In this document: in pieces, positions 10,597 through 53,100 of the stretch
Position numbering within the stretch: position 1 is the first letter of the stretch
Layout: each line of letters begins with the position of its first letter
Assembly: GCA_026417415.1 (NCBI GenBank)
Contig: JAOADG010000008.1
Span: 449,349-513,348, forward strand
Source: a bacterium
Lineage (GTDB): Bacteria > Electryoneota > JAOADG01
Length of the DNA: 64,000 bases
Direction: 5' to 3'
Program-made: the position numbers and the translations under genes
The notes under the pieces: model-generated
Database searches by the model: none
What the model saw: only the letters and a program-made list of their open reading frames with translations
What the model was told of the DNA's origin: nothing

Positions 10597-12909
10597 GTGG
10601 TAAAAAAATCGTTTTCTAACATCAGTACAATCACTTGTATTTCCTTGACCTTCCTTTCTATTTCATTTTCTGTAAAAGCAAGTGAGGTAGAAGCAAGAGA
10701 GGTTTATTCATTAATTCAAGTTCAAAATGATAGAAAGAATGTTTTACGAACCTTGCTGGTTGAGGGCTTTGACCTCGTACGTTCTGATCATCTACAGTAT
10801 TACCAAGTGGTTGCAAATCAAAGTGATTTACAACGATTACAAGAGTTGGGTTTCAATTATATCGTTCAGATTCATGATATGTCAGCATTTTATGAACAAC
10901 GATTGCAAAATGAAAGTTTGGATTTAGTGGGAGGTTATCCTACCTATGCAGAAACGAATGACTCTTTATGGCTTTATAGGTCACTTCGTCCAGACATCGT
11001 ATCCATCCCAGATACTATCGGATTTTCTATTCAAAATAGACCTATTTTAATGATTAAAATCAGTGACAATCCAAATGTAGATGAAAATGAACCGGAAGTA
11101 TTCTACAATTCAATGATCCACTCAAGAGAAATGATTACCCATACCTTGTTGATGTATTTTATCCGCTATTTAATTAACAATTACAATTCTGATGCACGAG
11201 TTCAAAACATTGTGAACAACCGTGAATTGTATTTTGTTCTTACGGTAAATCCAGACGGTATGGTTTACAATGAGACCTCGAATCCAAATGGTGGAGGAAT
11301 GTGGAGAAAAAATAGGAGAGTGAATCCGAACAATTCTCGAGGTGTTGACTTAAACCGAAATTTCGGCTTTATGTGGGGTTATGATAACTTTGGATCCAGT
11401 CCAGTAGGAAACAGTGAAACCTATCGCGGTACTGGACCTTTTAGTGAACCTGAAACACAAGCGATTCGGGATTTTATGAATGGTAGACAATTTCGTATCA
11501 CACTCAATTATCATAGTTATTCAAACTTCTATGTTTATCCAATTAGTTACCGGCGGATTTATGCACCAGATCATTTGCTATTGCACAATCTGGCTCTTAG
11601 AATGAATGTTGTGAATAATTATCAAGTGGGACAACCCTGGTGGCTGTTGTATCCTGTGAATGGAGATGCACCAGATTGGCAGTACAATGTTTCTCCTGAT
11701 TCATTAAAAAACTTTGCATATGTGGTTGAAGTGGGAACACAAGAAGATGGATTTTGGCCGCCTTTATCACGAGTACCTATTTTATGTCAAGAAAATTTAG
11801 AAGCAAATTTAAGAGCAGCTGAATTAGCTGCTGAACCGAGAATTGTTTTACCTCCTTCAAAACCAATCTTACTTTCACCTGATACAATACAGATGGATTT
11901 ACCAATCGAATGGATGGTCCCAAATTCCACAATCAATATCCCCGTTTCTTATGATTTTAGAGCTACCGACTATTTCCCTATTGGAGTGGAAACTTTTGAT
12001 AATAATTTAAACAATATCGGATGGTTACCAATGGATGTGACGATTACGACTACTCAATTTCACTCAGGTTATCGCTCTTTTCAATTTTTAAACCAAAACA
12101 ATGCACGTTCTATGTTAGTATCTGCTCATCCATATCAAGTCCAACATGGTGATACATTAAAATATTGGCTAAAGTATGATATTGAATCAGATTACGATTA
12201 CTTTTTTGCACAAATTTCAACAGATGGAGGTACTACTTGGATGTCTTTACGTGGTGATCGCACCGATACTACTAATCCTAATGGATTAAATTGGGATCAT
12301 GGAATTACGGGAACTTCTAATAATGTGTGGGTCCGATGTAAACATCCTTTACAAAATTTTGTTGGCAATGATGTGTACTTTCGTTTTGTTTATATCTTAG
12401 ATGGTGGAACGGTGGAGGATGGAGTATGGATTGATGATATAGAGCCATCAATTTTAACAAGTAATCCTTGGACATTGAATTTTACAAACATTACACAATC
12501 TTCTCTACAATTGAATCAGAGTGGTGAATGGTATGTACAAGTACGAGCGACTGATGCAGAAAATGACAAATCCTTATGGTCTAATTTGAGAAAATTTGTT
12601 CTTGTTGCAAATAATGCGAAAAATGAAACACAAAGAATACCCTTTCAATTTGCAATCACAAAAATTTATCCGAATCCTTTTAACCATTCAATATCTATTC
12701 ACTACACAATTCCATTCAATACTAATGTGATCATTCAACTGTATGCTTTAGATGGAAGACAAATTGCAACTCTTTCACAAAAGTTCCATCCTACAGGAAC
12801 ATACAATATCAATTGGAAAGCACCGAACGAACTCTCTTCCGGAATGTATTGGTTAGTTCTTTCCAATGAACAACATCGTATCATGAAAAAAGTTCTTTTC
12901 ATCAAGTAA
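10597..12909 (+). CDS. M14-family zinc carboxypeptidase with a C-terminal T9SS sorting domain.
   Basis: Signal peptide. M14 motifs 'IHSREMIT' (HxxE), 'NPDG', 'NRNFG', 'LNYHSYS'. C-terminal 'IYPNPFNHSISIHYTIP...MYWLVL...VLFIK'. Confidence 0.85.
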   Translation: MVKKSFSNISTITCISLTFLSISFSVKASEVEAREVYSLIQVQNDRKNVLRTLLVEGFDLVRSDHLQYYQVVANQSDLQRLQELGFNYIVQIHDMSAFYEQRLQNESLDLVGGYPTYAETNDSLWLYRSLRPDIVSIPDTIGFSIQNRPILMIKISDNPNVDENEPEVFYNSMIHSREMITHTLLMYFIRYLINNYNSDARVQNIVNNRELYFVLTVNPDGMVYNETSNPNGGGMWRKNRRVNPNNSRGVDLNRNFGFMWGYDNFGSSPVGNSETYRGTGPFSEPETQAIRDFMNGRQFRITLNYHSYSNFYVYPISYRRIYAPDHLLLHNLALRMNVVNNYQVGQPWWLLYPVNGDAPDWQYNVSPDSLKNFAYVVEVGTQEDGFWPPLSRVPILCQENLEANLRAAELAAEPRIVLPPSKPILLSPDTIQMDLPIEWMVPNSTINIPVSYDFRATDYFPIGVETFDNNLNNIGWLPMDVTITTTQFHSGYRSFQFLNQNNARSMLVSAHPYQVQHGDTLKYWLKYDIESDYDYFFAQISTDGGTTWMSLRGDRTDTTNPNGLNWDHGITGTSNNVWVRCKHPLQNFVGNDVYFRFVYILDGGTVEDGVWIDDIEPSILTSNPWTLNFTNITQSSLQLNQSGEWYVQVRATDAENDKSLWSNLRKFVLVANNAKNETQRIPFQFAITKIYPNPFNHSISIHYTIPFNTNVIIQLYALDGRQIATLSQKFHPTGTYNINWKAPNELSSGMYWLVLSNEQHRIMKKVLFIK

Positions 12910-14764: not shown

Positions 14765-16654
14765 ATGATAACATTTGATCAATTAGAATATGCAAAAAAT
14801 GTTGCAATTTCTGCTGCTCTTGAAGCAGGGAATCTTCTAAGAAGTGAGTTTCATCGAATAGATGGCCCTAGAAGCGAAAATTCACGATCAGCTATTATTG
14901 ATAGAATAGCTGAAAGTATTATTCAAGAAAAATTAAGTTTTCATTTTCCTCAATGGGAATATCAAGGTGAAGAATTAAAACAAGAAGTCCATGCAATTGG
15001 AATTCCTTACTGGACGGTAGATCCAAACGATGGAACAGCAGAATTTTTAAAAGGTCAAAGAGGTTTTTCAGTTTCTATCGCATTGATAGACGAATATGGT
15101 GAACCTGTACTTGGAGTTGTTTATTCTCCTTGTGCACCTGATGATGATGGCGATTTAATTGTTTATTATCGGGGTGGAAAAGTAACGAGGAATCATCAAA
15201 CAATACGCAGAGTACCAATTTCAACAAATAGAGAAAATCATATTCTAATTGCATCATTAGGTGCTGACAAAAAACCGTCTTGCAATTTAGAATTAATTCA
15301 ACCGTCGCGTTTTCGATGTTTACCGAGTATTGCTTATCGGCTTGCACTGGTAGCGGTCAATGAAGCGGATATTGCTATTTCTATCAATAGTCCAAATACA
15401 TGGGATATTGCAGCAGGACATGCGATACTACTCGGTGTGGGCTACGAGATTACCAATGAATATTGTCAGAAAATTCGTTATACTCCACAAGGGACATTAT
15501 CCAGTCGTGGAAAATTTCTATTAGGTGGCAATCCTTCCTTGATTTTTAATTATGCAAAAAAAGAGTGGCAAAAAATTCCTTTAGCAAAATCAGAAGCATC
15601 TAACGATCCCATTTATCCAGTTCGTACACTTGTAGGAAGTTCCTGTTCGAATTCAAAAGTGTTGACCCGTGCACAAGGGTGTTTTTTAGGAGCAATCATT
15701 GCTGATTCGATTGAGTTAGAAAATCATTTGCGAGCGCTTGGTTCAATCATTAATGAAAAATTCAGTACTAATTTTCAAGAGCAAATTCCGCTTGCCGGAC
15801 AAGGTTCAACTGCAACAGAATTAGCAATTTTACTATCACGTGCATTGATTAAAGAAAACTCAATCAATCTAAAAATCATTGCCCAATATATCCAATGGTG
15901 GCTTACTACCTATACGAATACTTTATTTCAAGCATTACAATCTGCAAATCTGAAAACAAATATTTCCCCTCAATTCAATACATTCAATTTACAAGATAGT
16001 ACAAGTTTATTTTCAGTTTTGCATAATATCGCTCAAATTAAATGGATATACCCAATGGCAATGTTTGGTCTCTTGAATCAACATCAGACAAACGATTTCA
16101 ATATTCCAATAGAGAAAATAATCGCTTCTTATCCTATCAATGCATGTTTACTTAGTCTTTACAAAGCGATACTCCATACCTTACGAACTGTAATTTTGAC
16201 AGGAGATAGAGAACGTGCATTTTCAGTAGCGTTACAGCATATCCTTTTGACAAAGGATGAACCATTGATTCAGCTGGTGAGAAACGCACAAAAAAGAATC
16301 TTTTTGCAATCTGCTGATATGGATGAAACTCTAGTATCTTTTCAAAATGCACTGTACCATTTACTTCACACTACTTCGTTTGAAGATTTTCTTAATCATC
16401 GTAGTGATATGTTACAAAAGAGCTCGAGTTCAGCGATATTAAGTGGGGCTATAGTTGGTGCTATTGTCGGCTATAGAAATATTCCAAAATTTTGGAGTAA
16501 AATGATTTTAAGTGCTCATCCTACTAAGAACTTTTCGCATATTCAAATTCCGAGACCATCAGTATTATGGAGTGTAGATGCACTACAAATCGCTGAAAGA
16601 TTATTGACCATTAAACAAAATAATTTAACGAAGGGCAAGCACTTTACGTACTGA
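14765..16654 (+). CDS. Fusion protein: inositol monophosphatase-family domain (aa 1 to about 270) plus an ADP-ribosylglycohydrolase-like domain (aa about 290 to 629).
   Basis: IMPase motifs 'WTVDPNDGTAEF' and 'WDIAAGHAIL'. ARH-like N-terminal motif 'RAQGCFLGAIIADSIE' and C-terminal motif 'SSSAILSGAIVGAIVGYRNIPKFW'. The usual GDTDT acidic motif is replaced by SSSA. Confidence 0.65.
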   Translation: MITFDQLEYAKNVAISAALEAGNLLRSEFHRIDGPRSENSRSAIIDRIAESIIQEKLSFHFPQWEYQGEELKQEVHAIGIPYWTVDPNDGTAEFLKGQRGFSVSIALIDEYGEPVLGVVYSPCAPDDDGDLIVYYRGGKVTRNHQTIRRVPISTNRENHILIASLGADKKPSCNLELIQPSRFRCLPSIAYRLALVAVNEADIAISINSPNTWDIAAGHAILLGVGYEITNEYCQKIRYTPQGTLSSRGKFLLGGNPSLIFNYAKKEWQKIPLAKSEASNDPIYPVRTLVGSSCSNSKVLTRAQGCFLGAIIADSIELENHLRALGSIINEKFSTNFQEQIPLAGQGSTATELAILLSRALIKENSINLKIIAQYIQWWLTTYTNTLFQALQSANLKTNISPQFNTFNLQDSTSLFSVLHNIAQIKWIYPMAMFGLLNQHQTNDFNIPIEKIIASYPINACLLSLYKAILHTLRTVILTGDRERAFSVALQHILLTKDEPLIQLVRNAQKRIFLQSADMDETLVSFQNALYHLLHTTSFEDFLNHRSDMLQKSSSSAILSGAIVGAIVGYRNIPKFWSKMILSAHPTKNFSHIQIPRPSVLWSVDALQIAERLLTIKQNNLTKGKHFTY

Positions 16655-17134
16655 ATGGATCTTATCCATCTTTAATAGAATGAAATAAACTCCACTGCTT
16701 AGTAGTTCTTCCTGGTATTGTAAAATGTGTTTCGTATTAATCCAACCACGATAAATCATTTCTATTTCATTCCCTTCTACATCGTACAAAGAAAGTTCAA
16801 CTTTCATTGGTTTTGGAGTTTGAATTGGAATTGTCATTGTATGATTAAATGGATTTGGATATGTTAGAATGGAAATGTTCGGAAGTGTATTTTCTGAAAA
16901 ATGTATTTCATTTGAATTGGACACTTCAAAGATAAATATACGGACCGTATTTGGTTGTGAATGGTATTGATAATAGGGTTGTCCAATAACAAGATCCTTT
17001 CTATTTTGTCCTGTTATGTTTCCACCACCAGAAATTGAGAAACCGAATCGAGTATTATGTATTAATTCAGGTGGCGAAATCGTATAAAGTAAATTTCTAT
17101 AAATGGAAAACAAATTAACTTTTCCAACAAACAA
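16625..17134 (-). pseudogene. Orphan T9SS C-terminal-domain ORF without a signal peptide; probable remnant of a larger cargo gene.
   Basis: The C-terminal 80 aa are a clean sorting domain ('LTYPNPFNHTMTIPI...SGVYFILL...'). There is no N-terminal signal peptide. The 3' end overlaps the convergent 14765..16654 gene by 30 nt. Confidence 0.45.
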
Positions 17135-17455
17135 TGTATCGCGAATTGTTTCTTAATAACACTTATTCCAACTTCTACTATACCATCTAAATTGAAAACA
17201 GATACATTTGAAAAGAAAATTCAAACTAACCATCTATCGTAGGGTTTGGTTGTTGGAAAGAGCGAACTGTACTACCATTAGATACCTTTTTAACTAGAAT
17301 GAGGATTTCATACCTTTTATCATTGGGCAATTTCTTAGTAACTTAAATTGAAAGTTATCATTCAGTTTGAAGAGATTGAATCAACTATAAGATATCAACC
17401 AATCATTGATCTACACTGTTGTACGTTGTAATATTTTTAGAAATTAAGAAACGAA

Positions 17456-19549
17456 ATGAAATCTTATCATCGTATATTACTGACTGGTGGTGGCACAGGG
17501 GGACATGTACATCCAGCAATAGCAGTTGGTGAAGCGCTTTTACAAATTGATCCCAATACATCCATTTTATATGCAGGTTCTGGTTTACCAGAAAGAGACC
17601 TAATTCCACCAAGTATGAAATATGTAGAATTTAAATCAATAGGTCTTCCGAAAATTTATAGTTTACGTTTTGTAAGGTTTCTTTTGACTTTAGGGGTTGG
17701 TACTTTACATGCAATTATACATCTCTTGAAATTTAAACCTACTGCAGTATTCTCTACAGGTGGCTATGTAAGTGCACCCTCTATATTTGCTACTACGATT
17801 ATCTCTAAATTGAAACTCTTGGGTAGATCTATTCCAATAATCGTTTTTGAACCCAATGCAGAGCCCGGTCGTATGAATCAATTGATTCAAAGATTCGCAA
17901 CCAGAATAAGTGTAACATCTGAAATAGCAAAAAATGTATTTCATTCTGAAAATGTATTTGTAGATGGCTATCCAATACGATGGAACATAGAACACATCTC
18001 AAAAACAGAAGCTCGGAATAAATTGTCTATACCTGAAAATGCTATTGTTATTCTTGCATTTGGTGGCAGTATGGGAGCTCGTACTCTCAATCATGCACTA
18101 TTAAAGGTTTGGAATGAACTCAGAAAAAATGAGAATGTTTATTTAATGCTGGCTGCTGGAAGAAAAAAATCAGACGACTTTGATCCAATACGAGAAGTGA
18201 ATATTCAACGTCGAAAATTGGGTTTGGAAAATGACCATCGTCTGATTGTAGTCGAGAGTTTTGATGATATGTCTATCCCTTATTCTGCTGCAGATATTGT
18301 TGTTTCAAGGGCTGGCGCTGGAACGATTGCAGAAATCTGTCATTTTGGAAAAGCTGCAATACTCATCCCAAAATCTAATCTACCACTAGATCATCAAGCA
18401 GTCAATGCTTTTTCAATGCAATCCCAACAAAAAGCATTAGTTGTCTATGAAAAAATTGTTCTATGCAATAACAAAATAGAAACAATTGTACCTTGGCAAA
18501 CGTTGTATCGTGAGTTGAACAAACTGATTGAACAACCATATCTTCGACATCGTTTGGGACAACAAGCAAAATCCAACGTATCTACCAATGCAAAAATTGA
18601 AATAGCTGAAAAATTACTTTTTTACAGTGCTGGTACTAAAGATCTTCATCATAAAGATAGCACAAAACATACAATAGAAAAAAATCAACTTCCAATAGGA
18701 TTAAACGCAATTGCATTGAGAAACCATTTTGAAAAAGAATTACTCAATCATTCTATTTCTTGGAAATGGACGTATTTGTATTCTGACCAAATATTACAAA
18801 AGGAATTTCCTAAAATTCCATCCATTGAAGTCATTCAATCAGTTCCTTTTTATGATTATTATTGCTATCGTGGGAATGCAATGTTAGGTAATGAAAGTTG
18901 GGAAGTTCAAAATGAAGGAATTAAATTATCTGCACTTTGTTTAAATCATGAAGTATTACCAATTTTATTGAATTGGATTCGAGATCGCAGGCCGACCACT
19001 TGGTTAAAAAGAAAAATGGGAGGTGATTTTCAAACAGTTGGATTTCTTCGTCGGAATGCAACGGCAGCGATTCCAGCATTTCATGATTGGTCTGAAGAAG
19101 TTTTACTTACTTTAGTTTTCGCACTATCGGACCCCTATTGGGAGGTAAGAACTGCTGCTGCAAGAACGTTAGCACGTTTACCCAAAGGAATCAATACAAT
19201 GGATTACGACCGAATGGTAGATGCTATAGAGAAAACCCTTACTTATGAAAGACATTATGAAGTGCTTGCTGCTACTTGGATTGCCTATGGGTATATTCTA
19301 CAAAGAAAACCACTAAAAGAATTCTTAGATAGATACCTTGTTCATCCTAATGATTTAGTTCGCACTTCACTAATGTTCGCAATTGAACTGCTCATTCAAA
19401 AAGGAGTACAATTTGAAGAAGAGGAATTGAATTTCATTTTGAATAAAATTCTTATGACTACATCTCAATTTACTCCAAGTTTTGGATTAAGAAGTGCGAT
19501 TGCTAATTTTCAAAAAACAATTGCGGAGTCAAAGTGCTCTATTGGTTAA
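17456..19549 (+). CDS. murG: MurG glycosyltransferase (lipid II synthesis) with a C-terminal HEAT-repeat extension of about 320 aa.
   Basis: N-terminal 'LLTGGGTGGHVHPAIAVGEAL' and 'SRAGAGTIAEICHFGKAAILIP' match MurG. The C-terminus carries HEAT-like units 'DPYWEVRTAAARTLARL' and 'HPNDLVRTSLMFAIELL'. Confidence 0.85.
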   Translation: MKSYHRILLTGGGTGGHVHPAIAVGEALLQIDPNTSILYAGSGLPERDLIPPSMKYVEFKSIGLPKIYSLRFVRFLLTLGVGTLHAIIHLLKFKPTAVFSTGGYVSAPSIFATTIISKLKLLGRSIPIIVFEPNAEPGRMNQLIQRFATRISVTSEIAKNVFHSENVFVDGYPIRWNIEHISKTEARNKLSIPENAIVILAFGGSMGARTLNHALLKVWNELRKNENVYLMLAAGRKKSDDFDPIREVNIQRRKLGLENDHRLIVVESFDDMSIPYSAADIVVSRAGAGTIAEICHFGKAAILIPKSNLPLDHQAVNAFSMQSQQKALVVYEKIVLCNNKIETIVPWQTLYRELNKLIEQPYLRHRLGQQAKSNVSTNAKIEIAEKLLFYSAGTKDLHHKDSTKHTIEKNQLPIGLNAIALRNHFEKELLNHSISWKWTYLYSDQILQKEFPKIPSIEVIQSVPFYDYYCYRGNAMLGNESWEVQNEGIKLSALCLNHEVLPILLNWIRDRRPTTWLKRKMGGDFQTVGFLRRNATAAIPAFHDWSEEVLLTLVFALSDPYWEVRTAAARTLARLPKGINTMDYDRMVDAIEKTLTYERHYEVLAATWIAYGYILQRKPLKEFLDRYLVHPNDLVRTSLMFAIELLIQKGVQFEEEELNFILNKILMTTSQFTPSFGLRSAIANFQKTIAESKCSIG

Positions 19550-25935: not shown

Positions 25936-28900
25936 TTACCTCAATTTGGCTAATTTCCCTTTTTTCTCGATGACTTGATTGTTGCTTTTTGCGGTTAATC
26001 GGTAAAAATAAACCCCGTTAGCTACCACTTCACCATTTTCGTCTCGGCCATCCCAGGTGATTTCTCGATAATTAATCACTTGTGGATCAGTTTCACGCAA
26101 TGTTCTTATTTTTTTACCAGATACCGTATAGATTTTGATTTCAACGGGTTCTGTAGTTTGATCGGTTAAACTGTAGAAAAATGTAGTAGTTTTTTGAAAA
26201 GGATTTGGAAAGTTTCCAAACCATTCTAATCGAAACTGATTAGCGACTAAAAAGTTTATGGAATCAGTTGCAGTATTACTTGCTAAATCTGTAACAATCA
26301 ATTTAGCCCAATGACGACCTGTTGAAAATCTTTTAGTGACGACAATGGAAGAGTTCTGAGAAACTTGATTGGATATCGGTAGTAGTAGTTCGTTTGAAGG
26401 AAGAGTATCACCATCAACTACAACATACACACTACCTTGCTGACTAAGATCCAATCCACCATTATCATATACACTTGCAGACAAACGTGCACCACTACGA
26501 ATATAGCCACCATCTGAGAAAATTTGTCCTTCTACAGTAAAATCAAATTTTGGTGCTGTTCTATCTTGATTATCCATTAAAGAAAACTGCTGATAAGGTG
26601 GTCCGTCATACAAGTGTATTCCTTGATTGTCCACAGTAGAATTTAGCATTTTCCAAAGATTGGTAAAATGTCGGGAATGAATTTTCGTACGATTGCCAAG
26701 AATAGTATCTGCTTGCATGTGTATAATTACGCGATTTAAATAGGCAGTAGTATCAATTTGTAAAAATACAATCCCACCCCCATTGAAGACGTTGCTTGGA
26801 TTTCTACCGAATATTGCAAATTTATTTAAAGTTTGTAATCGTGAATGCAAAGTATCACTGTAAGTTACAGACAATACTGTACTTGGTTTCTGTATTGAAT
26901 TCGGAGGAATAGAAACGCTTACTCGTGATGTTGGGTTATAACTAAACCCTCGATCTCCTTCAGTCGCAGTAATCCACCAATAGACGTTATTTGATGTTGC
27001 CAAATTGTAATTATCATTTTCACTCACTTCATTGACCACATTTTCATAATCAGCATAGTAAGAGAATTTGTATTGTCCCGGTGGATATTGAAATGGATAA
27101 TAAACACTTTGTGCTGTATAGGGTGGAATAGAGGGTACAGATAGGAACTCTACTGTAATGGTATCAGATATTTGTTTAATGATTGCTACTCGTAAAAGGG
27201 TAGGTGGAACTTGCAAGGGACTATTGTTGGTGACTGTGAATCGAACGAATAGCGAATCAGTTGCTCGCCAGTGTACTTGGTTAGGAACAACTAGATTAGG
27301 TCTTCCCGGATAAGCATAAAAATCATAATCTTGATTAGGTTGTCTTACATTCCCAAGTGAATCGATCCACCTCCAATTTGTTCTTAAACGCATAGAAGGT
27401 AAAAGAGCAGGTTGAAGGGAACTTTCATACCAGAATGGACCACGAATAAAGGAACGACTGAGTTGGATGGTATCAATAGATAAAATAGAATCGTCTAAGA
27501 AAAATTTTCTAATGATTCCTTGTAAAGTCCGTATCCCATCAGAATCTATAAGTTTTACATAAAACTTAAATGTCGTATCAGAAAGGAGGGGATTGGGATC
27601 AGTTGTTACACTATCAATAAAACCACTGCTTGCGGCGGATTGAATATAAAACGATGTAGCACCACGCACTGCGGTTTGATGGTTACTTTGATAAAACCCA
27701 CGTAAAGTTAAACCATTGGTAGAAATTCCACTAGGAACACGAATTCTAGTAGAAAATGAATTGGAAACAATCGGGCGAATCGAAACAATCGGTTCCCAAA
27801 CAGGATTATCAATAGAAAAATGATTTTGATTATACCATATAAAACTAACATTTCCACTATTGAAAGGAAGTGACGCTTGAATATCTATTGAGTCGCCTAC
27901 TTGAACAAACAATTGTGAACTATTTTGTTGAATATTTTCAAAAGCTTTGAAACGAAATGCAGGATCACCTAACAATGATGTAGCATAAAACGTATTACCA
28001 ACTGGGCCAAACATCGCACGATTGCCGTATCTACTGAGATAAATGGATTTAGTAAGAGTCATCAATTCACCATAAGAGATGTTCGGATATCTTCGGATTT
28101 GTTCAAACATAAATTGTTGAAACAAAATCATTTGTTCACGATAGCCTAAACCTGCTGTACCAAACACTCCGACTGCGCCTTTATTAGGATGAAGAACAAA
28201 GTCCTCACCCATAGAGCTGCGTTGTACATCACCATTAAACGCTACAATAAAGCAAGAGAAATTACAGATTAAAGGATACTTTCCTGCATTTCTCATATTT
28301 GCTATATCACGTGTGCGAAAGAGACCACCGTCAGACCAAATTTCACCTGCACCATGGCCATTGTATATCACCAAAGCTGAACCTTTCTCGAACAAATTTT
28401 GGAGTAAAGAGGTACCACCATAATAGGGAAGAGAAGGATTCTCTACTTGCATTTCCCAAAAGTCATAATATGGCGATAAACGATCACGATTAATACGGTT
28501 GTATATTGTATAAAGGTTTTGACCACCAGAACCTGTAACAAAAGTAATGTAATTTTGCCAACGATCAGGTGTTGGGTTGTTTTCTAATTCAAGAACTTTG
28601 TTAAAATAAAAACCGGCTTCCTCTTGAGTTCTTGCCGGAACACGACTAATATGAATATCTGGTAAATCATTTTCATCGTCTAAAATTGAATACCAAGTAT
28701 CAGAACCTACTACACCAATTTGTGAAACTGGAACCATAGGATGTGGAATAAGTGCACCATTTTTTCTTGGACTCCGATGCTGACGTTGAAGCCCGTCACC
28801 AAGTAGTAAGATGTACCGTGGAGGAATTTGCCAATTTCTTACAGCATAACGTAGAAATTCTAGAACTCCTTTGGGATGAAACATACCTTGTGTGAATCTT

Positions 28901-35446: not shown

Positions 35447-36943
35447 ATGAAAAAGGTTTTCATTGTTTTAGTTCTTAATGTTTTCACAGCGTCAGCTGTT
35501 TTCGCTTTAGTGGTTCAAAGTACTATTCCACAAAATGGTACTGCTAATGTTCCGTTGACCACTGTACTTTCAGCAACTTTTTCTACTCCAATTGACCCAA
35601 ATGCGATGTTTCCAAATGGGTACCCTATAAATATAGAGATATTTCATCCAGATTCGATCACGATAATATCCTCTTCGCTGTCTTCAAACAATCAATCAGC
35701 CTACATGAATGTACAACTTAGACCGAACAATGATTATGTCGCTATCATTTTAGGTGCAGTTACTCCGACTGGTGATTCATTGGATATTCCGTATGTATTG
35801 AATTTTTCTACTGCTCCTTCCATGGGGAATCTTCAAGTTTCAGGTACGGTTACAATCAATAATTCTGGTGCATACCGTGCAATTGTGGGTTTATCAAGAA
35901 ATCGTCCTTTTACAGAAGAAGACATGTACATTGCACAAGCTACAGTGGTTCAAAATCAACAAGGGAATTATTCCTTGCCTTATACTAGGCCTGGGATTTA
36001 CTTTCCAGTCGCTGTCATTGATTTAGATGGTGATGGAGTCATCGATCTTGAATCAGGAAATGATTACTTTGGGTTTTATGATAGCAACAATGATGAGATT
36101 CCTGATAGCATTCAAGTGTCTAATACCAATATATCCAATATCAACTTTACTCTTCGTTCAATTTACATGCCGATAACCGCAAGACAAAGATTACAGGTTG
36201 CGAATGCTATAGCACAAACAATGATGCCCAATCCTCAATTGTATTTCTTATATGGATTTGAGGTAGATTCGATAGGTAGAGCAGATGCTTGGGCTTATTA
36301 TTATCAATCTAATTCGGTTAATTACATCGCTGGAGTGTATGTAGCTTATCTCTTTACCAGTGCAGATACCACCTCCGAAAATCCTTTACCGCCGAATATG
36401 TTATCATTACCACAAAATTGGATTGATAGTGACCAAGCCATGTTGATAGCTGAACAGAATGGAGGTGCTTCCTATCGCGTTCAGTATCCAAATACGGAAA
36501 TGTACATGTATGGTGGAAACTTTTATTGGTTGGATTCTGCTTGGCAAAACCGTTTCATTTGGTTAGTTGAATATTATGTACCCGAGATTGATTTATCACT
36601 TGAGATTTACATTGATATGCTAAACGGGCAATTGTTAAGAGTCACAAATACCAATGAGCCACTTCGTACCTCTTTACCCCAAAGCATTGAATTGTCACAA
36701 AATTATCCCAATCCATTCAATCCAGAAACAAACATTTCCTTTACATTACCGAAAGATCATTTCGTAACTTTACAAGTGTACAACATTCAAGGAGAATTGG
36801 TTACAACATTATTGAACCGTAGATTGAATGTAGGAACCCACACAGTCAAATGGAACGCAAGTGGATATCCAAGTGGTACTTATTTCTATCGTTTACAGGT
36901 GGGTAAGCAAGTGATGATGAGAAAAATGACTCTAATGAAATAA
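35447..36943 (+). CDS. Secreted protein (Ig-like and CarbPepD_reg-like domains plus a Ca-binding-like 'DLDGDGVID' motif) with a T9SS C-terminal sorting domain.
   Basis: Start ATG 35447 with RBS GGAGGAAAAATG and signal peptide 'MKKVFIVLVLNVFTASAVFA'. C-terminal 'LSQNYPNPFNPETNISFTL...SGTYFYRLQVG'. Confidence 0.7.
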   Translation: MKKVFIVLVLNVFTASAVFALVVQSTIPQNGTANVPLTTVLSATFSTPIDPNAMFPNGYPINIEIFHPDSITIISSSLSSNNQSAYMNVQLRPNNDYVAIILGAVTPTGDSLDIPYVLNFSTAPSMGNLQVSGTVTINNSGAYRAIVGLSRNRPFTEEDMYIAQATVVQNQQGNYSLPYTRPGIYFPVAVIDLDGDGVIDLESGNDYFGFYDSNNDEIPDSIQVSNTNISNINFTLRSIYMPITARQRLQVANAIAQTMMPNPQLYFLYGFEVDSIGRADAWAYYYQSNSVNYIAGVYVAYLFTSADTTSENPLPPNMLSLPQNWIDSDQAMLIAEQNGGASYRVQYPNTEMYMYGGNFYWLDSAWQNRFIWLVEYYVPEIDLSLEIYIDMLNGQLLRVTNTNEPLRTSLPQSIELSQNYPNPFNPETNISFTLPKDHFVTLQVYNIQGELVTTLLNRRLNVGTHTVKWNASGYPSGTYFYRLQVGKQVMMRKMTLMK

Positions 36944-41735: not shown

Positions 41736-44700
41736 TTATTTCAAATAGACCATTTTGTAATGTTTCATTTGATTTTTAGTTGACACAACCAGATAGTAAA
41801 TCCCTGATGTGTGTTGAATCGGATTCCACTCAAGAACATAATTACCTTGACTGTAGAAACCATCAAGTAAAGTAGTTACCATTCTTCCTTGAGTGTCAAA
41901 TACTTGAATTTTGATATTTTCATCTTGTAATAAATTCAGTCGGATGTTAGCTGTGTTATTAAAAGGATTGGGATAAGGACCTTTAAGTACAAATTGATTG
42001 GGTTGTAGATTCAAGTTTTCATTTCGTTCGTTACCGATTTCTAAAAAGTTATCGGGTGGTACTGTAGTAAATCGAATTGCGCGATTTGAACGAAGTGTAT
42101 CAGATCCTGGTGTTGGAGTTCTGGCATAAGTAATTTCAAGACCATCAAGATGACTCCAATCCATAATCCCAACTGTTGTAAAATTGTTATTGACATCTAC
42201 ATCAGATGCAATTTGATATTGCATGGTAAATTCATTATCACCCGTAGGACCAAAACGGTTTCCGTGGAGAATTAGTTGAAAGCGTTGGGGGATAGGAGTC
42301 GTTTCAATGCCATATCTTGAATACATTCTTCCCCATTGAATAATAAAATCTTGAGTAGCTGGATTATAGTAGTACCATATTGAAACTCGTCCAGTATCAG
42401 CTGCTAATCCCTTCAAGTCGTCCCACATAACAGCAATCATTGCATTGGGTCCTTGCGCATTCGGCATAGGCCAATTGTAAAAATCAGTTTGCCAAGTATT
42501 CTGAAAGCTTACCCAACCATTAGAACAAATGGAAATTCCATCAGATTGATAATTTGTGCCGTAATAACGAAATGTAAACGGTAATGGTAGATTAATGGTC
42601 TGATCATCATTGAGTCGAATGTGTGTACCCAATCCGCCCGAATCAGGATCCAGTTCTATCCAATTGTACGTTGGTGCTGCAGCATACTGAATATCTAAAT
42701 TTTCATAGGCATAATATCCATAGCGATCAGGACCAGTGGGTTGATGAGTAGGCCTACTTCCAGCAGTCAAATTGAAATTGATTAGTGCATAATTGGGTGC
42801 TAATGAATGTGAAAGAATTATCCTCATTGGGATAACATGACCCACAATTTGATTAGACGGGATGGTCACAGTAAACGTAAGATTGGTTATTTGGTGTTGT
42901 TCCACCTGATTAAAGTTTGCATTTCCGTTGATGATCACCGCACCGTTTGAAAAAGTATTAAGTTGTGCTGTTCCTTGTGGTATCCGTCCAACACCTTCGT
43001 TTTTTACATAAACCTCAATTGTAGCAGTATTCCCTGGTGTTAGAGAACCGTTCATCACTGAATAACCCGTAACGATAGGGAAAATCCAACCAATTGGTAA
43101 ACAAAACTCTCGATTTCCTGATGGAAAAGCAAGCGACATTCTGATATCATTAAACGTGTGAGTAGAAGGAATGGCAGTAACTGTGTAACTTAAAGTTCCT
43201 GTTCCATTAGCACCAATAGTACCTGCGTTGGAACTGTTTTGTTGGATAGAGATTCGATTAGGCATCAACGTTGAAAGAACAGCAGATGCATTCGCTGAAG
43301 AAGTAGAGACATTTTTAATAAAAACTTGTAAAGTAGCAGTTTCACCAAATTCTAAAAGTCCATTCCCTCCATCTACAATTCGAACAGAATCTACACGAAA
43401 TGGTACATTATCATTTCCACTTGCGGTGGTATTGAAAAATTGTGGCCGATAATTGCGTCCTCTCACAGCAATGCGAATCGAATCACCTACATTTGCTCGA
43501 AAGGTTAACGTTGCATATCCCTGATTATCCGTGACAGCGACACTATGTACATTGTTCGGTGCGATCAAAGCTGCTACCAAATTAGATTGTGGAATTCCTG
43601 TAAGACCATCTATAGCACGTACAGTAACTTGTCCTGCATTGGCTAATATTGTAGTTGGAAATATTACATTTAAACTATCTGGTAGCAATTGCCAAAGAGT
43701 GATTGATGGATCACCAAGAATATTGTAGTAATGAAAATAAGCTTCCGATGAAGTTGGTTCTAATGGAAAACCTCGGTACACTTCTAATTTTGAACGAAGT
43801 GCGATCATTCCAAATTTTTCCAGTCCTTCTGTGAGCCATCCTTCCATAAAACCGGCTAACATTGGGTTGTTGTATCGTGTGTTGGTGTGAAGGTGTGAAG
43901 CACCAAAAAATACCGGTCCACCCTTCATATCATTTACAGATCCAAGTTCAACCCAAACTTCACCAAAACATCTTTGATTGGGTACAGGTGAAGATCCCGG
44001 TCCAAATGCTCCAGTTTGGCAAACGATAGAGACGAATGGACTCAATGAATTGGAGGTTACACTATTTAAATCATCTACACGTAATCTTGGGTAAAGTGGT
44101 CCTTGACTATCACCCCAGCCGCGATAAGTAATTAAAGAAAGACCTTGATTGATTTGAGCAAGTATTTCCGAAGTACCTGGAAAAGTGGGTGGATAGTAGA
44201 TTTCGGATACTGAATATCCTTTTGTACGAAGCATATCAGCTGCCCATCTGGAATTTAGCGTAGGTGTTACAGGTGGTGTGCCTGAATCTGAATAATTTCC
44301 AGCAAAGCAAAGTGCACGGGTCATCTGTTGGTTAATCATGTTTCTCCCCGGAAAGTTTTGATAACGTAGATTTTTATTGATTACAACAGCCATCTGTGTC
44401 GCATTTCCGCCAGTAACACGTCCAATAATGATTTCTGGCCAAAAATCATTTCCAGAGAGCATGGTATAAGGATGATCAGAAGAAACAGTTTCAGTAAAAG
44501 GGGGAAGAGAAGTGAATGAATTTGTCGCAATGGAATAGGCACCGCGATCTGCATCACCCACTAAAAGAACATATTCTAAAGGAATAGATAATGTATTGTA
44601 TTGATTAAGTATCAAATTTCGAATTGACGTTGGTGTAGAATTGGAAGCGATTTGTTGAAGGATTACATGGTACCCTTCAAGTCGTTTAGAGTTGGCGAAA

Positions 44701-45669: not shown

Positions 45670-48543
45670 ATGATTTTTATACGAATTATCTTATTTATAG
45701 GGGTCTTGTTATTTCCATTTCCTTTAATTTCCAATCAACTTATTTATCCGATTACAAAAGGTGATAATTTTTCCTCTTTACTTAGTATTTACACACGTTC
45801 AATTGAAAACAATATAAATTCTTTTTCCACATTAATTAATGAAAATGAGATGAATGAAAGTACTGAAGTTAATGTTATACTTCATGGAAATATAAATAGA
45901 AAAGATTTAGAGGAATTGGGGGTAAAGATTGGTACATCTACGTCGAATTGGGTTACAGCAAGAGTGAATTATTTGCAATTACAACAGATAAAACAGATTC
46001 CGAATATAACCTGGATTGAGATGGGCGTAAAAAATGATCCTTTATGTGCTATTGCAAATTCAGATTCAACAACTGCAGGTGGATGGAAATTAGGAAATGG
46101 TGCATCTTTGGTACACCAAGTATATGATGGCACCAACGTGCTTTTTGGTATCATTGATACTGGAGTAGATTGGGCACATTTAGATTTTCGGAATGATGCG
46201 AATCCGACCCAATCCAGAATACTTTTCATCTGGGATATGGTAACACCACCAGGAAATGGAAGATTTTCTCCAATTGGTTTCAACTATGGTGTGGAATTTA
46301 ATCAATCACATATTAACAATGAATTAGATGGTACACCTGAGGGTTATGTAGTATCCATGTCCAATTCATCACATGGTACAACCGTTGCAGGAATTTCAGT
46401 AGGAGATGGTTCAGCATTCCCAAATAACGGTTTGGCAAAAGGAGTAGCACCTAAAGCAAATTTATTGGTTGTTCGTGTGAATCAAAGTACAACTGCAGAA
46501 ATCATTGATGGTGTAAATTGGCTAATGCAAAAAGCCAATCAATTAGGAAGGCCGATAGTGGTTAATATCTCATTAGGTGGCCATTTTGGTGCTCATGATG
46601 GTTCCAGAACTGATGAACAATACATTTCTTCACAATCGGGACCAGGTAAAATTTTTGTGATTGCAGCAGGTAATAGTGGGAATTCAAATATCCATGCACA
46701 AGGAACTGTCAATACCACTCAATCTACTACCTTTAATGTACCATCATCTACTACTGCAGTTTTAATTGATGTGTGGTACAAAGGAGGAGATGCTTACATT
46801 TTCCAATTAACGAATCCTACAGGAACCACTCTATCGTTCAATCCAATGTCTGACAATGTTGGAAATTATCCAAACAATGATTATGCAGAAGTTTACAATG
46901 GTACAGAAACAATTGCACCAATTACCAATGGGGATGGTAGAATTGTTCTATACATTGCAGATGGAAACTCAAGTACAATTACCGGTGGTACTTGGACGAT
47001 GACTTTACAAAGAGTACAGTTTTCCGGAAATGGAACTTGGGATGCTTGGGTCGCGGGTACAGCGGGGGGAAGTGTAGTTTTTACATCAAACCAAAATACT
47101 TTAAAAACACTAACTATGCCAGCAACTGCAACAAATGCAATTAGTGTAGCAAATTATAGTGGAGGTGGTATTTACATAGATATAAACGGAGTTCAGCGGG
47201 GCACTTCAACTTTGGATGGGCGGCGGGTAGCTACTTCAAGCAGAGGTCCAACACGAACAGGTGGACAAAAACCAGAGATATCTGCAGTTGGAAATGTGGC
47301 AAGGACAACACGTGCATCTTCTTACAACCCTGGAAATTCACAATTACTACCCGGTGGCTTTCATTATGTTTCTGGATCAGGTACTTCTTTTGCAGCTCCT
47401 CACGTTGCTGGTGCTGTTGTATTGATGTTACAAAAGTGGAATTTGCTTAATCAAAACGATGTAAAAAGTAAGCTAATTAATTCTGCGACTTTAGATACAC
47501 AAACAGGTCCTGTATGGAATGATTCGTGGGGATTTGGAAAATTGTACATTCCAAATGCATTGCAGACGATCACAAAAACAGTACAACCTAATGTTCCTAT
47601 TACATTTGGTAACACATCCACCACTTTAACGTTTACAACTTTGCCGAGTGGACAATGGAATGTAACTGTGGATAGGATTTCTCAGACACCACAAAACATT
47701 GGATCGCATTCTGCATTACCATTTTATTATTCAATCACTTCTTCATTACCAAATTTTAACTTTTCTACTACAATTGAAATCCAATATACAAATCAAGAAG
47801 TAGGTTCATTAGATGAAAATGTTTTAACGATTTGTTATTTTGACGGTTTAAATTGGATCCCACTCCCTAATCAAATGCGTTTTCCAAATGAAAATAAAGT
47901 ACGTGCAACTACGGATCATTTTACCGATTTTGGTGTTTTAGATAGCGAAGAAGGAACCTTACCGGTTCAGTTAACTTCATTTCAAGCTGTCGGTGAAGTA
48001 GGAAGAATTCGCATCACTTGGAAAGCGGAATCTGAGATTGATTTGAATTATTGGATTCTTGAAAAAAGAGAAAGAGGTTACCAATCATTTACTATTCATA
48101 GCATTACTCCTGGTATAGGTCAAAACGTTCCGCATCTGTACAATGTCTTTGATTATCAAGTAATTCCAGCAAAAGTGTATGAATACCGATTGACTGAAGT
48201 TACAGCGGATGGTGAACAAATTATCTATCCAAGTATCGTATCTGCAGCATCTCTTGAAAGGCAAGATCTTTCTATACCTTCAGTATTTGAAATTTCAAAG
48301 GTTTATCCAAATCCATTTAATCTGAATGCTACATTTCGAATTCGAGTCCCTTATCAATCTGAATTAGAAGTGTACGTTGTGGATATTTTAGGAAACCGTG
48401 TAGCAAACATTTCTAAAGAGCATTTTCAGTCGGGCGAATATCAATTTGAATGGAATGCGAAACATCATAGTTCTGGGATTTACTTTTTAGTTGCAAAAAT
48501 GAATGATCAACAAGTAACCAAGAAAATAGTGTTAATGAAATGA
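45670..48543 (+). CDS. Subtilisin-like serine protease (peptidase S8) with a T9SS C-terminal sorting domain.
   Basis: Catalytic triad 'GIIDTGVDWAH' (Asp), 'SHGTTVAGISVG' (His), 'GSGTSFAAPHVAGAVVLM' (Ser). RBS GGAGGAAATATG. C-terminal 'ISKVYPNPFNLNATFRI...SGIYFLVAK'. Confidence 0.9.
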   Translation: MIFIRIILFIGVLLFPFPLISNQLIYPITKGDNFSSLLSIYTRSIENNINSFSTLINENEMNESTEVNVILHGNINRKDLEELGVKIGTSTSNWVTARVNYLQLQQIKQIPNITWIEMGVKNDPLCAIANSDSTTAGGWKLGNGASLVHQVYDGTNVLFGIIDTGVDWAHLDFRNDANPTQSRILFIWDMVTPPGNGRFSPIGFNYGVEFNQSHINNELDGTPEGYVVSMSNSSHGTTVAGISVGDGSAFPNNGLAKGVAPKANLLVVRVNQSTTAEIIDGVNWLMQKANQLGRPIVVNISLGGHFGAHDGSRTDEQYISSQSGPGKIFVIAAGNSGNSNIHAQGTVNTTQSTTFNVPSSTTAVLIDVWYKGGDAYIFQLTNPTGTTLSFNPMSDNVGNYPNNDYAEVYNGTETIAPITNGDGRIVLYIADGNSSTITGGTWTMTLQRVQFSGNGTWDAWVAGTAGGSVVFTSNQNTLKTLTMPATATNAISVANYSGGGIYIDINGVQRGTSTLDGRRVATSSRGPTRTGGQKPEISAVGNVARTTRASSYNPGNSQLLPGGFHYVSGSGTSFAAPHVAGAVVLMLQKWNLLNQNDVKSKLINSATLDTQTGPVWNDSWGFGKLYIPNALQTITKTVQPNVPITFGNTSTTLTFTTLPSGQWNVTVDRISQTPQNIGSHSALPFYYSITSSLPNFNFSTTIEIQYTNQEVGSLDENVLTICYFDGLNWIPLPNQMRFPNENKVRATTDHFTDFGVLDSEEGTLPVQLTSFQAVGEVGRIRITWKAESEIDLNYWILEKRERGYQSFTIHSITPGIGQNVPHLYNVFDYQVIPAKVYEYRLTEVTADGEQIIYPSIVSAASLERQDLSIPSVFEISKVYPNPFNLNATFRIRVPYQSELEVYVVDILGNRVANISKEHFQSGEYQFEWNAKHHSSGIYFLVAKMNDQQVTKKIVLMK

Positions 48544-50121: not shown

Positions 50122-53100
50122 TTACTTCACTAAGACCATTTTTTTCAGTGCTTGAAATTTACCGCTTTCTATTCTATAGAAATAAACCCCTGCAGCGAAT
50201 TTAGTGCCGTCAAACCGAACTGAATGATATCCTGCAGGTAATTCTTCATTGACCAGCGTTGCCACAGTTCGACCTAAAAGATCAAACACTGTAAGTTTAG
50301 TTAACCCTTTTTCTTTTAGATCAAATCGAATCTCAGTAACGGGATTAAATGGATTCGGGTAGTTTTGGTGCAATTTATATTCTACTGGCAAACCATTTTG
50401 ATCACTAACTTCGCTTGGAATTCCAACAGTGATTTGAACAGGAATAACATGGGGTGAAGGGCAACCATTGAAAATGATGCGAATGTTTGCGTTTAAGATT
50501 TGCCCTATGGTATGAGTTGAGTCAACAGTAACTTGGACAAATAGATCATTGGTTTGACCCGGTAAAATCGTTCCGCTGGTAGGATTGGCAATAATCCAAG
50601 TGGACCAACCATTTTGTGCAAATGCAATCTTATAGCCGTCCATATTGGTCGGGATATTCTGACCAGAAGTTGCAGTATAATAGCATTGGATATAATTGTT
50701 GTTTGCACCTGATCCACCTTGAATACCAATGGTGGGATTCAGTGCGCTTTCCGTCATACTATTGTATGCGAAGATGATACCGTTATTCGAGCCGTGTAGT
50801 TGAACTTGAAAACTCACAGTGTTTGATGGTGTACTGTACCGATAGCCATTCCATTGAACATAAAAAATATTTGAAGCAATATCATGATAAGTAATCGCAG
50901 TAGTCACTAAATCATCCCAACAAGGCATAATCATATTCGTTGCAACTGTTGTAGGTAAAGTAGTATTACCTAAAGAGTTACTTCCTGTAGTGGTGCCTAA
51001 TTGAATGAAACCATTGGAACAGATCCAAAAACCACCTGAATAAGTAGTTCCGTAATATTCAAAAGTAAAGTTGCCAAAGTTTGCTGCTAAGCCATAATCA
51101 TCTTGACCAGTGAAAATTGTAGTACCAATTGAAGTAATATCAAAGAAATCAAAACTGGGGAAATCATTTTCTACATTGTCAATTGCTTCATATCCTGAAC
51201 CGTCTGGTCCCCATCTAGTATCTGTACTAGTTTGAAGTGTTTGTAAACGTACACGCCAATTAAGTGGAGAGTTGCCTGTATTTTGTAAGGTTACTGTAGT
51301 TGAAGAAATTAATCCCGGCGGTACCAACATTTCTACAGAACTTGGATTTACTGCTAAAATTGGACGTGTCATATAAAAGTTCAATGTATCAGTTTGAGCA
51401 GAATCTACAACCACTCCAGTGATAGTAACAGTATCATAGCAAGCAACTCTGGCTTGAACATCATAGACGCCAGTACGTATATCGGGAATTACAAAATTTC
51501 CGTTGATGTCAGTGATCGCACTATAAATTCCTGCTCTTACTTCTACATTTGGCATGGGTGGTGTGCCCGGGATTGAATCCCGTACAGTACCTACTAACGA
51601 ACCAAATCCAGGACCCATAAAATTTCCTTCATCAGCACCAATATCACAAGTAGTCCCAGATCTCGTATCTCCATCAAAATCAAAATTAAGAGTTGGATAT
51701 CGTAAAGCCCCATTTTCTATTACAGTACTCAAGAGTGGATTAATATGCAGATTTGTATCAGCTACAAACGGAGCCAATTCCGAAAATGAGAGTTGATCAC
51801 GCGGAGACCAAGTGGGGTTATTGACGAGTTCTTCCAAAGTATTGATGTTGGTAGTTCCAATTCGTGCAGGATAATTGTTATCCGTTAAATTTCCTGGAAT
51901 AGGAGCAAGTAGATTGTAATTGCTAAAAAGAATTGTGGTTGGCGTATTGATATAAATTCCAACGTGATAGTTTGAAGTTGTGCCACCACTTCGTGTATTT
52001 TGGAAAATATTTCCCCATAAGGTATCACCAGTAGCAGATGTACTTCCAAAATAAAACCCAAAACTGTTACCTGAAGATGTGGTTCCTTGTATCCAAACAG
52101 AATTGTTCACGTAAGATGTGCGCGCATATGTTCCTGAACCAGCTTCATAGATACCATATACACTACCTGTAGTGCCAGCACCAACATTGACCATATTGTT
52201 CGCAACCAAATTGTTGGCATCATAGATACGAATACCATACACTGTACTTGAAGCAGTTCCACGGATATTATTGACATGGTTGGAGGTTATCTGTCCAAAT
52301 TGAAAACCAGTAGTTGTAAAAATTCCATAAACGGTTGAACTAGAACTTGGTGTTACATGGAACAACCGATTTTTATGGAATTTAAAGTATGTATTATACC
52401 CAGTATACAAACCATAATAATAAAAGTCACGGATATCACAATTTTCAACGGAACTTTCAGTGATTAATTCTGCTGTACTTCCATAAGCATATATTGAATA
52501 ATATCCTCCGATAAGTTCACAATTGATGACTCGATTAGCAGGAAGAGGAATATTTGGACTAGTTCCAGTATTTGCAAACTGAACTACGCGATAAGTACTC
52601 GAAGTAGTAATACCAATGTTCAATACACAATTTTTTACCGTATTGTAACCAGAACTATCGGAGAATAATATAACCGATGTAATACTACCACTAGTGTTGA
52701 TTCGGACGTGTCTTCCATTTGGATCGTTGGGCCAACTACCATCCAAAGTAATGTAACGTGCGTTTCGGAATACAAATGCACCTGTGCTTGAAGTAGATGT
52801 TTTATTGATAATCACTTCGGCACCTTGTTCGGGACGAAATACCACAGGTCTTGTTGAATCTGATGTGAAACTGATTGTATCTGCTTGTTCGTTGTAAGTC
52901 CCACTACGAATTAGAAAAGTTACACCTCCTGTACCCACACCAATGTCTCGTAATGCGGCTAATGCAGCAGATATTGAAACAAAATCTGGATTTTCACCAC
53001 CAATGGTCAAATTCCCGCTTAATGAAGCGCGGACAAAGTAACCAAATGTATTATTTGGTGGTGTCGTGCCAGGAGGATTGGCTCCTGAACCACCAAATGG

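Follow-up and report, generated by a model that had tools for sequence, protein, structure and literature searches.

Why would a bacterial gene keep, joined to what looks like a working phosphatase, a domain of the ADP-ribosylglycohydrolase (ARH) family that has lost its metal-binding cluster? The question is raised by a gene in a window of 64,000 nucleotides, by which we mean the whole stretch of DNA that was analyzed (positions 449,349 to 513,348 of contig JAOADG010000008.1, from a bacterium of the Electryoneota). The original prediction, made from the letters alone, held that the gene encodes a fusion of an inositol-monophosphatase (IMPase)-family domain with a degenerate ARH-like domain, that the second domain is non-catalytic and possibly binds ADP-ribose, and that the architecture was not one recognized as described. 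Here we follow up these proposals by asking what the gene encodes, how it differs from its relatives, and what might account for the retention of the degenerate half.

A Single Open Reading Frame Encodes the Fusion

The gene occupies the following interval:

14765..16654, plus strand: whole coding sequence of the IMPase–ARH fusion protein, 629 aa plus stop codon, with an ATG start

The open reading frame begins 27 nt past the stop codon of an ABC-transporter gene, has a GC content of 35%, and runs through 629 codons without a stop or a frameshift. Its product (P0001 in our numbering) is 100% identical to the NCBI entry 'MAG: hypothetical protein N2450_02940 [bacterium]'. A Pfam scan finds both PF00459 and PF03747 in this one frame. 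The fusion is genuine, and the motif strings on which the original prediction was based were located in the translation at the places given for them.

We assign a negligible probability to the view that the two-domain frame is an artifact that joins two genes, and nothing was found in its favor. Homology to the window detected by tblastn forms one HSP, all of it in the gene's own frame, and ARH motifs hidden in another frame were looked for at the gene and none was found. Moreover, the syntenic ortholog described below is also fused, the same architecture at a similar length recurs in all 120 of the homologs listed, and the same two-domain gene is present in hundreds of independent genomes (at least 551 species genomes). 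An assembly or frameshift artifact was rejected on these grounds.

The Phosphatase Half Is Intact

The features of the N-terminal half are as follows:

14765..15574, plus strand: N-terminal IMPase-superfamily (CysQ-like) phosphatase domain, aa 1-270, with its Pfam match at aa 8-237
14966..14974, plus strand: GEE (aa 68-70), with the first glutamates of the IMPase metal site, both intact in the alignment columns
15011..15046, plus strand: IMPase motif A, WTVDPNDGTAEF (aa 83-94), with D86, D89, G90, and T91 intact in the alignment
15401..15430, plus strand: IMPase motif B, WDIAAGHAIL (aa 213-222), with D214 intact in the alignment

The metal-site residues E69, E70, D86, D89, G90, T91, W213, and D214 are all present in the alignments, as expected from the proposal that both IMPase signatures are intact, and they are near-invariant across the family (among the 120 homologs listed, E69 is kept in 119 and E70 in all 120). 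Over the IMPase half as a whole, the window protein agrees with the family at 72 of the 80 columns whose conservation is 90% or higher. The Pfam profile PF00459 (Inositol_P) matches aa 8-237 with a score of 109.7 bits (E = 2.3e-31), where the cutoff is 27. The top NCBIfam match is CysQ (TIGR01331), at 88.4 bits, which is below the equivalog cutoff of 228.8; fusion members with an intact ARH half score 81–83 bits and are likewise below the cutoff.

Structural comparisons pointed in the same direction. The top match among PDB sequences is CysQ of Bacteroides (3b8b, E = 8e-14), and the best 50 Foldseek matches to the predicted structure of this half are all IMPase/SuhB (E of about 1e-12, TMt 0.71–0.82). 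The AF2 model, with a pLDDT of 88–99 over aa 1-270, displays the alpha-beta-alpha-beta-alpha sandwich of the fold. The likeness to CysQ, or 3'(2'),5'-bisphosphate nucleotidase, lies in the metal-binding motifs common to both, whereas the fusion family differs in having DPNDGT for DPLDGT, a conserved FHRxGGPRG loop, and an attached ARH domain. From its conserved residues we infer that the IMPase half has Mg2+-dependent phosphomonoesterase activity.

The Fusion Is Widespread and Normally Has a Complete ARH Site

A search of 5.8 billion proteins yielded 1039 matches to the window protein. Both Pfam domains are present in all 120 of the matches listed, most of which are about 590–660 aa long. A survey in which each species was represented by one genome revealed that at least 551 species genomes encode a relative. 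The phyla with the fusion include Acidobacteriota, Chloroflexota, Planctomycetota, Myxococcota, Gemmatimonadota, Verrucomicrobiota, and Hydrogenedentota. Automatic annotation by JGI/NCBI has produced the name 'ADP-ribosylglycohydrolase/...inositol monophosphatase family enzyme', and other members are automatically named 'ADP-ribosylglycohydrolase family protein' or 'inositol monophosphatase family protein'. The architecture is neither rare nor unusual, with more than 1000 proteins in the databases, and to that extent the proposal that it is not a described one is not supported. However, no published account of an IMPase–ARH fusion was found in the full-text literature, nor is the fusion mentioned in two reviews of ADP-ribosylation. 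It is catalogued in databases, yet it seems never to have been the subject of a study.

The ARH half of an intact member aligns to DraG with an E value of 1e-28, and intact members score 120–139 bits on the DraG profile TIGR02662, below the equivalog cutoffs for both DraG and Tri1. In the alignment to DraG, in which the numbering is corrected for the 5-residue tag offset of the R. rubrum chain, the Glu of GDALGSLVEF corresponds to E28, the TDD motif to D60/D61, and the Asp of PFDxG to D97. The residues E28, D60, and D97 are catalytic in DraG (PMC8120803 Table 2), and the crystal variant D97N (2woe) has Asn in the column of the PFDxG Asp. The motifs NGxxMR, THxHP, and GGDxDT are common to DraG and the fusion family. 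A tail, PRPxxxWxVDAxxLAERLL, follows the ARH domain across the family, whereas DraG has no such tail. As counted from alignment columns, the acidic ligands of the ARH site are complete (six of six) in 162 of 177 full-length family proteins. The family is best pictured as joining, at the N terminus, an IMPase-superfamily phosphomonoesterase that depends on Mg2+ to a C-terminal ADP-ribosylhydrolase of the DraG/Tri1 type and a conserved tail of about 20 residues.

The ARH Half of the Window Protein Has Lost Its Active Site

The window protein resembles other members of the IMPase–ARH family (PF00459 plus PF03747) in domain order, linker, tail, length (~600–650 aa), and IMPase ligands, but departs from them in having none of the six ARH acidic ligands, in carrying a 9-aa insertion that no other homolog listed has, and in having lost a loop. 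The corresponding features of the C-terminal half are:

15653..16519, plus strand: degenerate DraG-type ARH domain, predicted to be all-helical, aa 297-585 (Pfam PF03747, Foldseek)
aa 302-314, plus strand: RAQGCFLGAIIAD, the ARH-like motif that opens the C-terminal half, located in the translation
15707..15733, plus strand: SIELENHLR, a 9-aa insertion within the GDALG...VEF motif, unique among the 120 homologs listed
15737-15757, plus strand: LGSIINE, following the insertion, with Asn at the position of DraG E28 (alignment)
15797..15820, plus strand: GQGSTATE for the family's GQPTDDSE, with Thr/Ala in place of D60/D61 (DraG numbering; alignment)
15896..15925, plus strand: WWLTTYTNTL, site of the deleted PFDxG loop, with no equivalent of DraG D97 (alignment)
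16019..16141, plus strand: region of the degenerate NGxxMR and THxHP elements, of low model confidence (alignment, AF2)
16019-16045, plus strand: LHNIAQIKW, with the degenerate NGxxMR element (IAQIKW; alignment)
16124-16141, plus strand: ASYPIN, with the degenerate THxHP element (SYPIN; alignment)
16412..16495, plus strand: LQKSSSSAILSGAIVGAIVGYRNIPKFW for the family's GGDTDTNAAIAGALLGA..G...IP..W, with D243/D245/T246 (DraG numbering) replaced by Lys/Ser/Ser (alignment)
aa 550-577, plus strand: ...SSSSAILSGAIVGAIVGYRNIPKFW, the ARH-like closing string that was quoted in the original prediction, located in the translation

In alignments with 120–177 homologs, GGDTDT of the family has become QKSSSS and TDD has become STA. 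At the positions of the six acidic ligands the window protein has N, T, A, a gap, K, and S, and T246 is replaced by Ser. The loss of the GDTDT cluster, from which the ARH half was originally judged to be degenerate, is thereby confirmed, and it extends to all six of the elements defined by DraG (E28, D60/D61, D97, NGxxMR, THxHP, and GGDxDT). The binuclear metal site that had been suggested as something to look for in the C-terminal domain is missing from these columns. Despite the loss of ligands, the glycine-rich helix at 16412..16495 is preserved. The ARH half is, judging from its alignment, almost certainly non-catalytic.

The extent of the degeneration is also evident from profile scores. 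PF03747 (ADP_ribosyl_GH) matches the window protein with 33.7 bits, where the cutoff is 26.2, its best stretch being confined to profile positions 231–286, about the last 55 of the profile; the closest member of the family, P0002, scores 166 bits and typical members score about 215 bits over the full profile. Similarly, the window protein matches 46 of 97 family-conserved ARH columns, as compared to 68 for P0002 and 92 for P0003. On DraG TIGR02662 and Tri1 NF041672, for which the cutoffs are 337 and 490, the window protein scores 21 and 25 bits. When 1.84 billion representatives were searched exhaustively by phmmer with the degenerate domain alone, no relative closer than P0002, at 31%, came to light. 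Among the sequences now available, the degenerate form is a singleton, and no relative of the whole protein exceeds 44% identity.

Nevertheless, the predicted fold is that of an ARH domain, as had been anticipated. When the C-terminal domain was modeled alone (pLDDT 81, pTM 0.85), all 44 of the significant Foldseek matches in the PDB were ARH-family structures. The modeled domain is like DraG (PDB 2woc and 3g9d) and Tri1 (PDB 6dre) in its all-helical fold, with TMt values of 0.55–0.68, but differs from DraG in having no equivalents of E28, D60, D61, D97, D243, D245, and T246 and in being fused to a phosphatase. The AF2 model of the full-length protein (pLDDT 89, pTM 0.92, with a confident linker) is consistent with two domains in a fixed arrangement, with the reservation that the AF2 input alignments consist mostly of intact homologs, from which the modeled fold and the domain packing may be borrowed. 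The weak regions of the model, aa ~321-350 and ~381-460, coincide with the former catalytic loops. Two further features lie outside the two domains:

15575..15652, plus strand: interdomain linker, aa 271-296, pLDDT 92–96
16550..16606, plus strand: family-specific C-terminal tail PRPSVLWSVDALQIAERLL (aa 596-614), past the best-matched stretch of the Pfam ARH profile

The tail is fully conserved in the window protein and in every other member with a dead ARH half.

The Degenerate Half Is Maintained in Frame

Among the matches listed, the closest member, P0002 (44% identity), is a syntenic ortholog and is itself fused. The order shared by the two loci is AAA ATPase, SSF symporter, M14 peptidase, ABC transporter, fusion gene, MurG, and MraY. 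The neighbors are 80% (MraY), 75% (AAA), 73% (ABC), 65% (M14), 65% (SSF), and 54% (MurG) identical to their counterparts at the orthologous locus (L001), and the IMPase halves of the two fusion proteins are 59% identical, whereas the ARH halves are only 33% identical. Thus, the acceleration is specific to the ARH half. P0002 itself retains five of the six ARH acidic ligands. Since the only ortholog is 44% identical, synonymous sites are saturated.

Could the rapid divergence mean that the whole gene is turning into a pseudogene in an eroding genome, with no maintained function in either half? The low identity of the ARH half (33%, against 54–80% for the neighbors) fits such a view, and so does the state of the adjacent DNA: relative to the syntenic locus, the FG-GAP gene directly downstream is reduced to a remnant of 169 aa and a Sortilin-like gene is missing. 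This truncation and loss of nearby genes shows that erosion is tolerated in this lineage. Against this, the gene has no stop or frameshift in its 629 codons. In particular, the 340 codons of the ARH half contain no stop in their own frame and 17–31 stops in each of the other five, and 2000 shuffles of this half yielded a mean of 24.4 stops and a minimum of 11, so that about 24 stops per 340 codons would be expected by chance. Moreover, all of the IMPase ligands and 72 of the 80 conserved IMPase columns are kept, the tail motif is fully conserved, and the same pattern is stable in several other lineages. We consider decay of the whole gene improbable. Indeed, the ARH half keeps scaffold glycines and residues of the helices, and none of the tail motif has been lost; these retained residues, together with the open frame, suggest that the dead half has been under purifying selection.

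Catalytic Sites Have Been Lost in Either Half

The window protein is not the sole member of the family with a dead ARH half and a live IMPase half; the others are P0011, P0130, P0158, P0169, P0195, and P0197. Because the nearest relatives of these proteins, as judged by the IMPase half, have intact ARH sites, at least four losses of the ARH site were independent. In the window protein's own clade, P0121 is missing three of the six ligands and P0002 is missing one. The degeneracy of the ARH half is peculiar to the window lineage and does not characterize the family as a whole. The reverse case also occurs, in P0125 and others, whose IMPase ligands are gone and whose ARH site is intact. These reciprocal losses indicate that the two activities are separable and that the architecture is not given up when one of them is lost. 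The window copy can be described as a lineage-specific pseudoenzyme variant, and as such it is new, the fusion architecture itself being already in the databases.

What, then, might the dead domain do? One view, in keeping with the ADP-ribose-binding module of the original prediction, is that it is a sensor that binds ADP-ribose or a related nucleotide without hydrolyzing it and that regulates or targets the phosphatase half. ARH members without catalytic activity do exist. An example is ADPRHL1 (ARH2) of vertebrates, a pseudoenzyme with an ARH fold that has lost its catalytic residues and is retained and functional (PMC10601310, PMC7390403). However, ADPRHL1 is a stand-alone eukaryotic protein, its role in the heart is a structural or regulatory one, and it is not specifically related in sequence to the window domain. 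That the ARH domain is kept in frame with its scaffold residues would also be expected of a sensor. On the other hand, DraG and ARH3 hold the terminal ribose through two metal ions, and all of the metal ligands are gone here. Also, the domain no longer has the PFDxGxTT loop, other residues stand in place of the NGxxMR and THxHP elements, and the regions of the lost loops are the low-pLDDT parts of both models. Finally, the independent dead forms share no common replacement motif on which they might have converged. Binding of ADP-ribose by the ARH half is, from these substitutions, unlikely, and we regard a role as a sensor as unlikely too, if somewhat less so than decay of the whole gene.

Alternatively, the ARH scaffold might have been re-purposed for a new kind of catalysis or binding, using new residues such as the serine-rich KSSSS and the 9-aa insertion. 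The uniqueness of the insertion, the serine-rich replacement of the metal motif, and the in-frame state of the domain are what would be expected. The degenerate form, however, is a singleton sequence with no similarity to any other family, and relaxation accounts for its rapid, unpatterned divergence better than directional change does. Of the functional roles considered for the dead domain, we find this one the least credible, and it is less probable than decay of the gene as well.

The interpretation that we favor, with a probability of roughly 0.6, is that the window protein acts as a phosphatase only and that its ARH relic serves as a scaffold integrated into the structure of the protein and may also have a part in regulation. 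According to this interpretation, the hydrolase half would have become a pseudoenzyme in the window lineage, the metal ligands and substrate loops disappearing while the helical scaffold and the tail were kept. The dead domain would have been retained through its structural integration with the phosphatase half, in whose stability or positioning, and possibly regulation, it would participate, rather than as a reader of ADP-ribose.

Possible Coupling of the Two Halves

The loss of catalytic residues in either half, with preservation of the architecture, would imply a structural or regulatory coupling of phosphatase and ADP-ribosylhydrolase. The pairing of a DraG/Tri1-like domain with a CysQ-like domain suggests, in turn, that a phosphorylated adenine-nucleotide or ADP-ribosyl compound may be the substrate of the family. 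A tentative proposal, which we hold to be distinctly more doubtful than not, is that the IMPase–ARH family represents an undescribed bifunctional enzyme whose halves are coupled, either in the two-step processing of a phosphorylated ADP-ribosyl conjugate or by mutual allostery. In the two-step version, substrates might be, for example, NADP-derived 2'-phospho-ADP-ribosyl-arginine or an ADP-ribose-capped phosphorylated nucleic-acid end. If the halves are coupled, then either may decay to a regulatory pseudoenzyme (ARH here, IMPase in P0125) with neither being deleted, and the window protein would represent a naturally occurring "separation-of-function" variant, with the phosphatase activity on its own.

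By itself the window gene is a modest curiosity, and the family is the more valuable lead; its characterization could bring to light a new step in the metabolism of ADP-ribose or NAD(P) in bacteria. Variants that are dead by nature, the window protein among them, would be ready controls for separating the two activities.

The neighbors of the window gene are genes for an M14 peptidase, an ABC transporter, a remnant with a T9SS tail, MurG, and MraY. No DraT- or Tre1-type transferase and no GlnB-type partner is nearby, and when the neighbors of the fusion gene at 85 loci were clustered no neighbor was conserved, no cluster being present in more than four of the 85. Individual loci differ, and operon context was rejected as a clue to function. 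PADLOC defense models assigned neither the window protein nor the intact member P0006 to any family (0 families).

Finally, we note that some variants of the fusion are about 1000 aa long and are arranged in the order ARH–IMPase–ARH.

Degeneration of Either Half in the Fusion Family

The window protein, a fusion of an inositol-monophosphatase-type phosphatase (IMPase) half with a DraG-type ADP-ribosylhydrolase (ARH) half, has lost all six acidic ARH metal ligands. Degeneration runs in the reverse direction in three homologous proteins, P0125, P0138, and P0142, in which it is the IMPase ligands that are gone (in P0125, for example, DPNDGT has become DALDGK and GEE is missing), whereas six of six ARH ligands are intact. 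In the longer homologues P0092, P0097, and P0102 (approximately 1000 aa), a second ARH domain lies N-terminal to the IMPase domain, creating an ARH-IMPase-ARH layout. Third-position GC in the window gene is 0.174 in the IMPase half (14765-15574) and 0.259 in the ARH half (15647-16609), a gap that may be a sign of weaker codon-level constraint on the degenerate ARH half.

Neighboring Genes

Stand-alone ARH genes were, level with one other cluster, the commonest neighbors of fusion genes among the 85 family loci compared. Intact genes of this kind, with a GGDADT motif, lie within 4 kb of the fusion gene at four loci, including L085:
L085 11208-12023, intact stand-alone ARH gene
At four of 85 loci, such a gene is too infrequent to qualify as an operon partner of the fusion.

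On the 3' side of the window gene are two fragments matching a 523-aa FG-GAP protein encoded at L001, the syntenic locus of its closest relative:
16625-17134, minus strand, 169-aa ORF matching only aa 349-523 (type IX secretion tail end)
17211-17282, minus strand, fragment matching aa 305-328
The ORF is convergent with the fusion gene and overlaps its 3' end by 30 nt. The 849-aa Sortilin-Vps10 gene that follows the FG-GAP gene in L001 has no counterpart in the window. The remnants and this absence represent local gene truncation and loss in the window lineage.

Farther downstream is a MurG gene:
17456-19549, plus strand, MurG, 697 aa
Its GT28 N- and C-terminal domains are normal (aa 7-333) and are followed by a C-terminal extension of about 330 aa with weak HEAT-repeat matches at aa 532-606. 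MurG at L001, its syntenic orthologue, is equally long (700 aa), and the extension is therefore conserved in this lineage.

Type IX Secretion Signals

Many C-terminal sorting domains for type IX secretion (Por_Secre_tail) occur in the window, carried by large secreted proteins:
12616-12906, Por_Secre_tail
26098-26310, Por_Secre_tail
36671-36940, Por_Secre_tail
41739-42077, Por_Secre_tail
48250-48540, Por_Secre_tail
50125-50433, Por_Secre_tail
Their abundance suggests that the host is an FCB-group bacterium.
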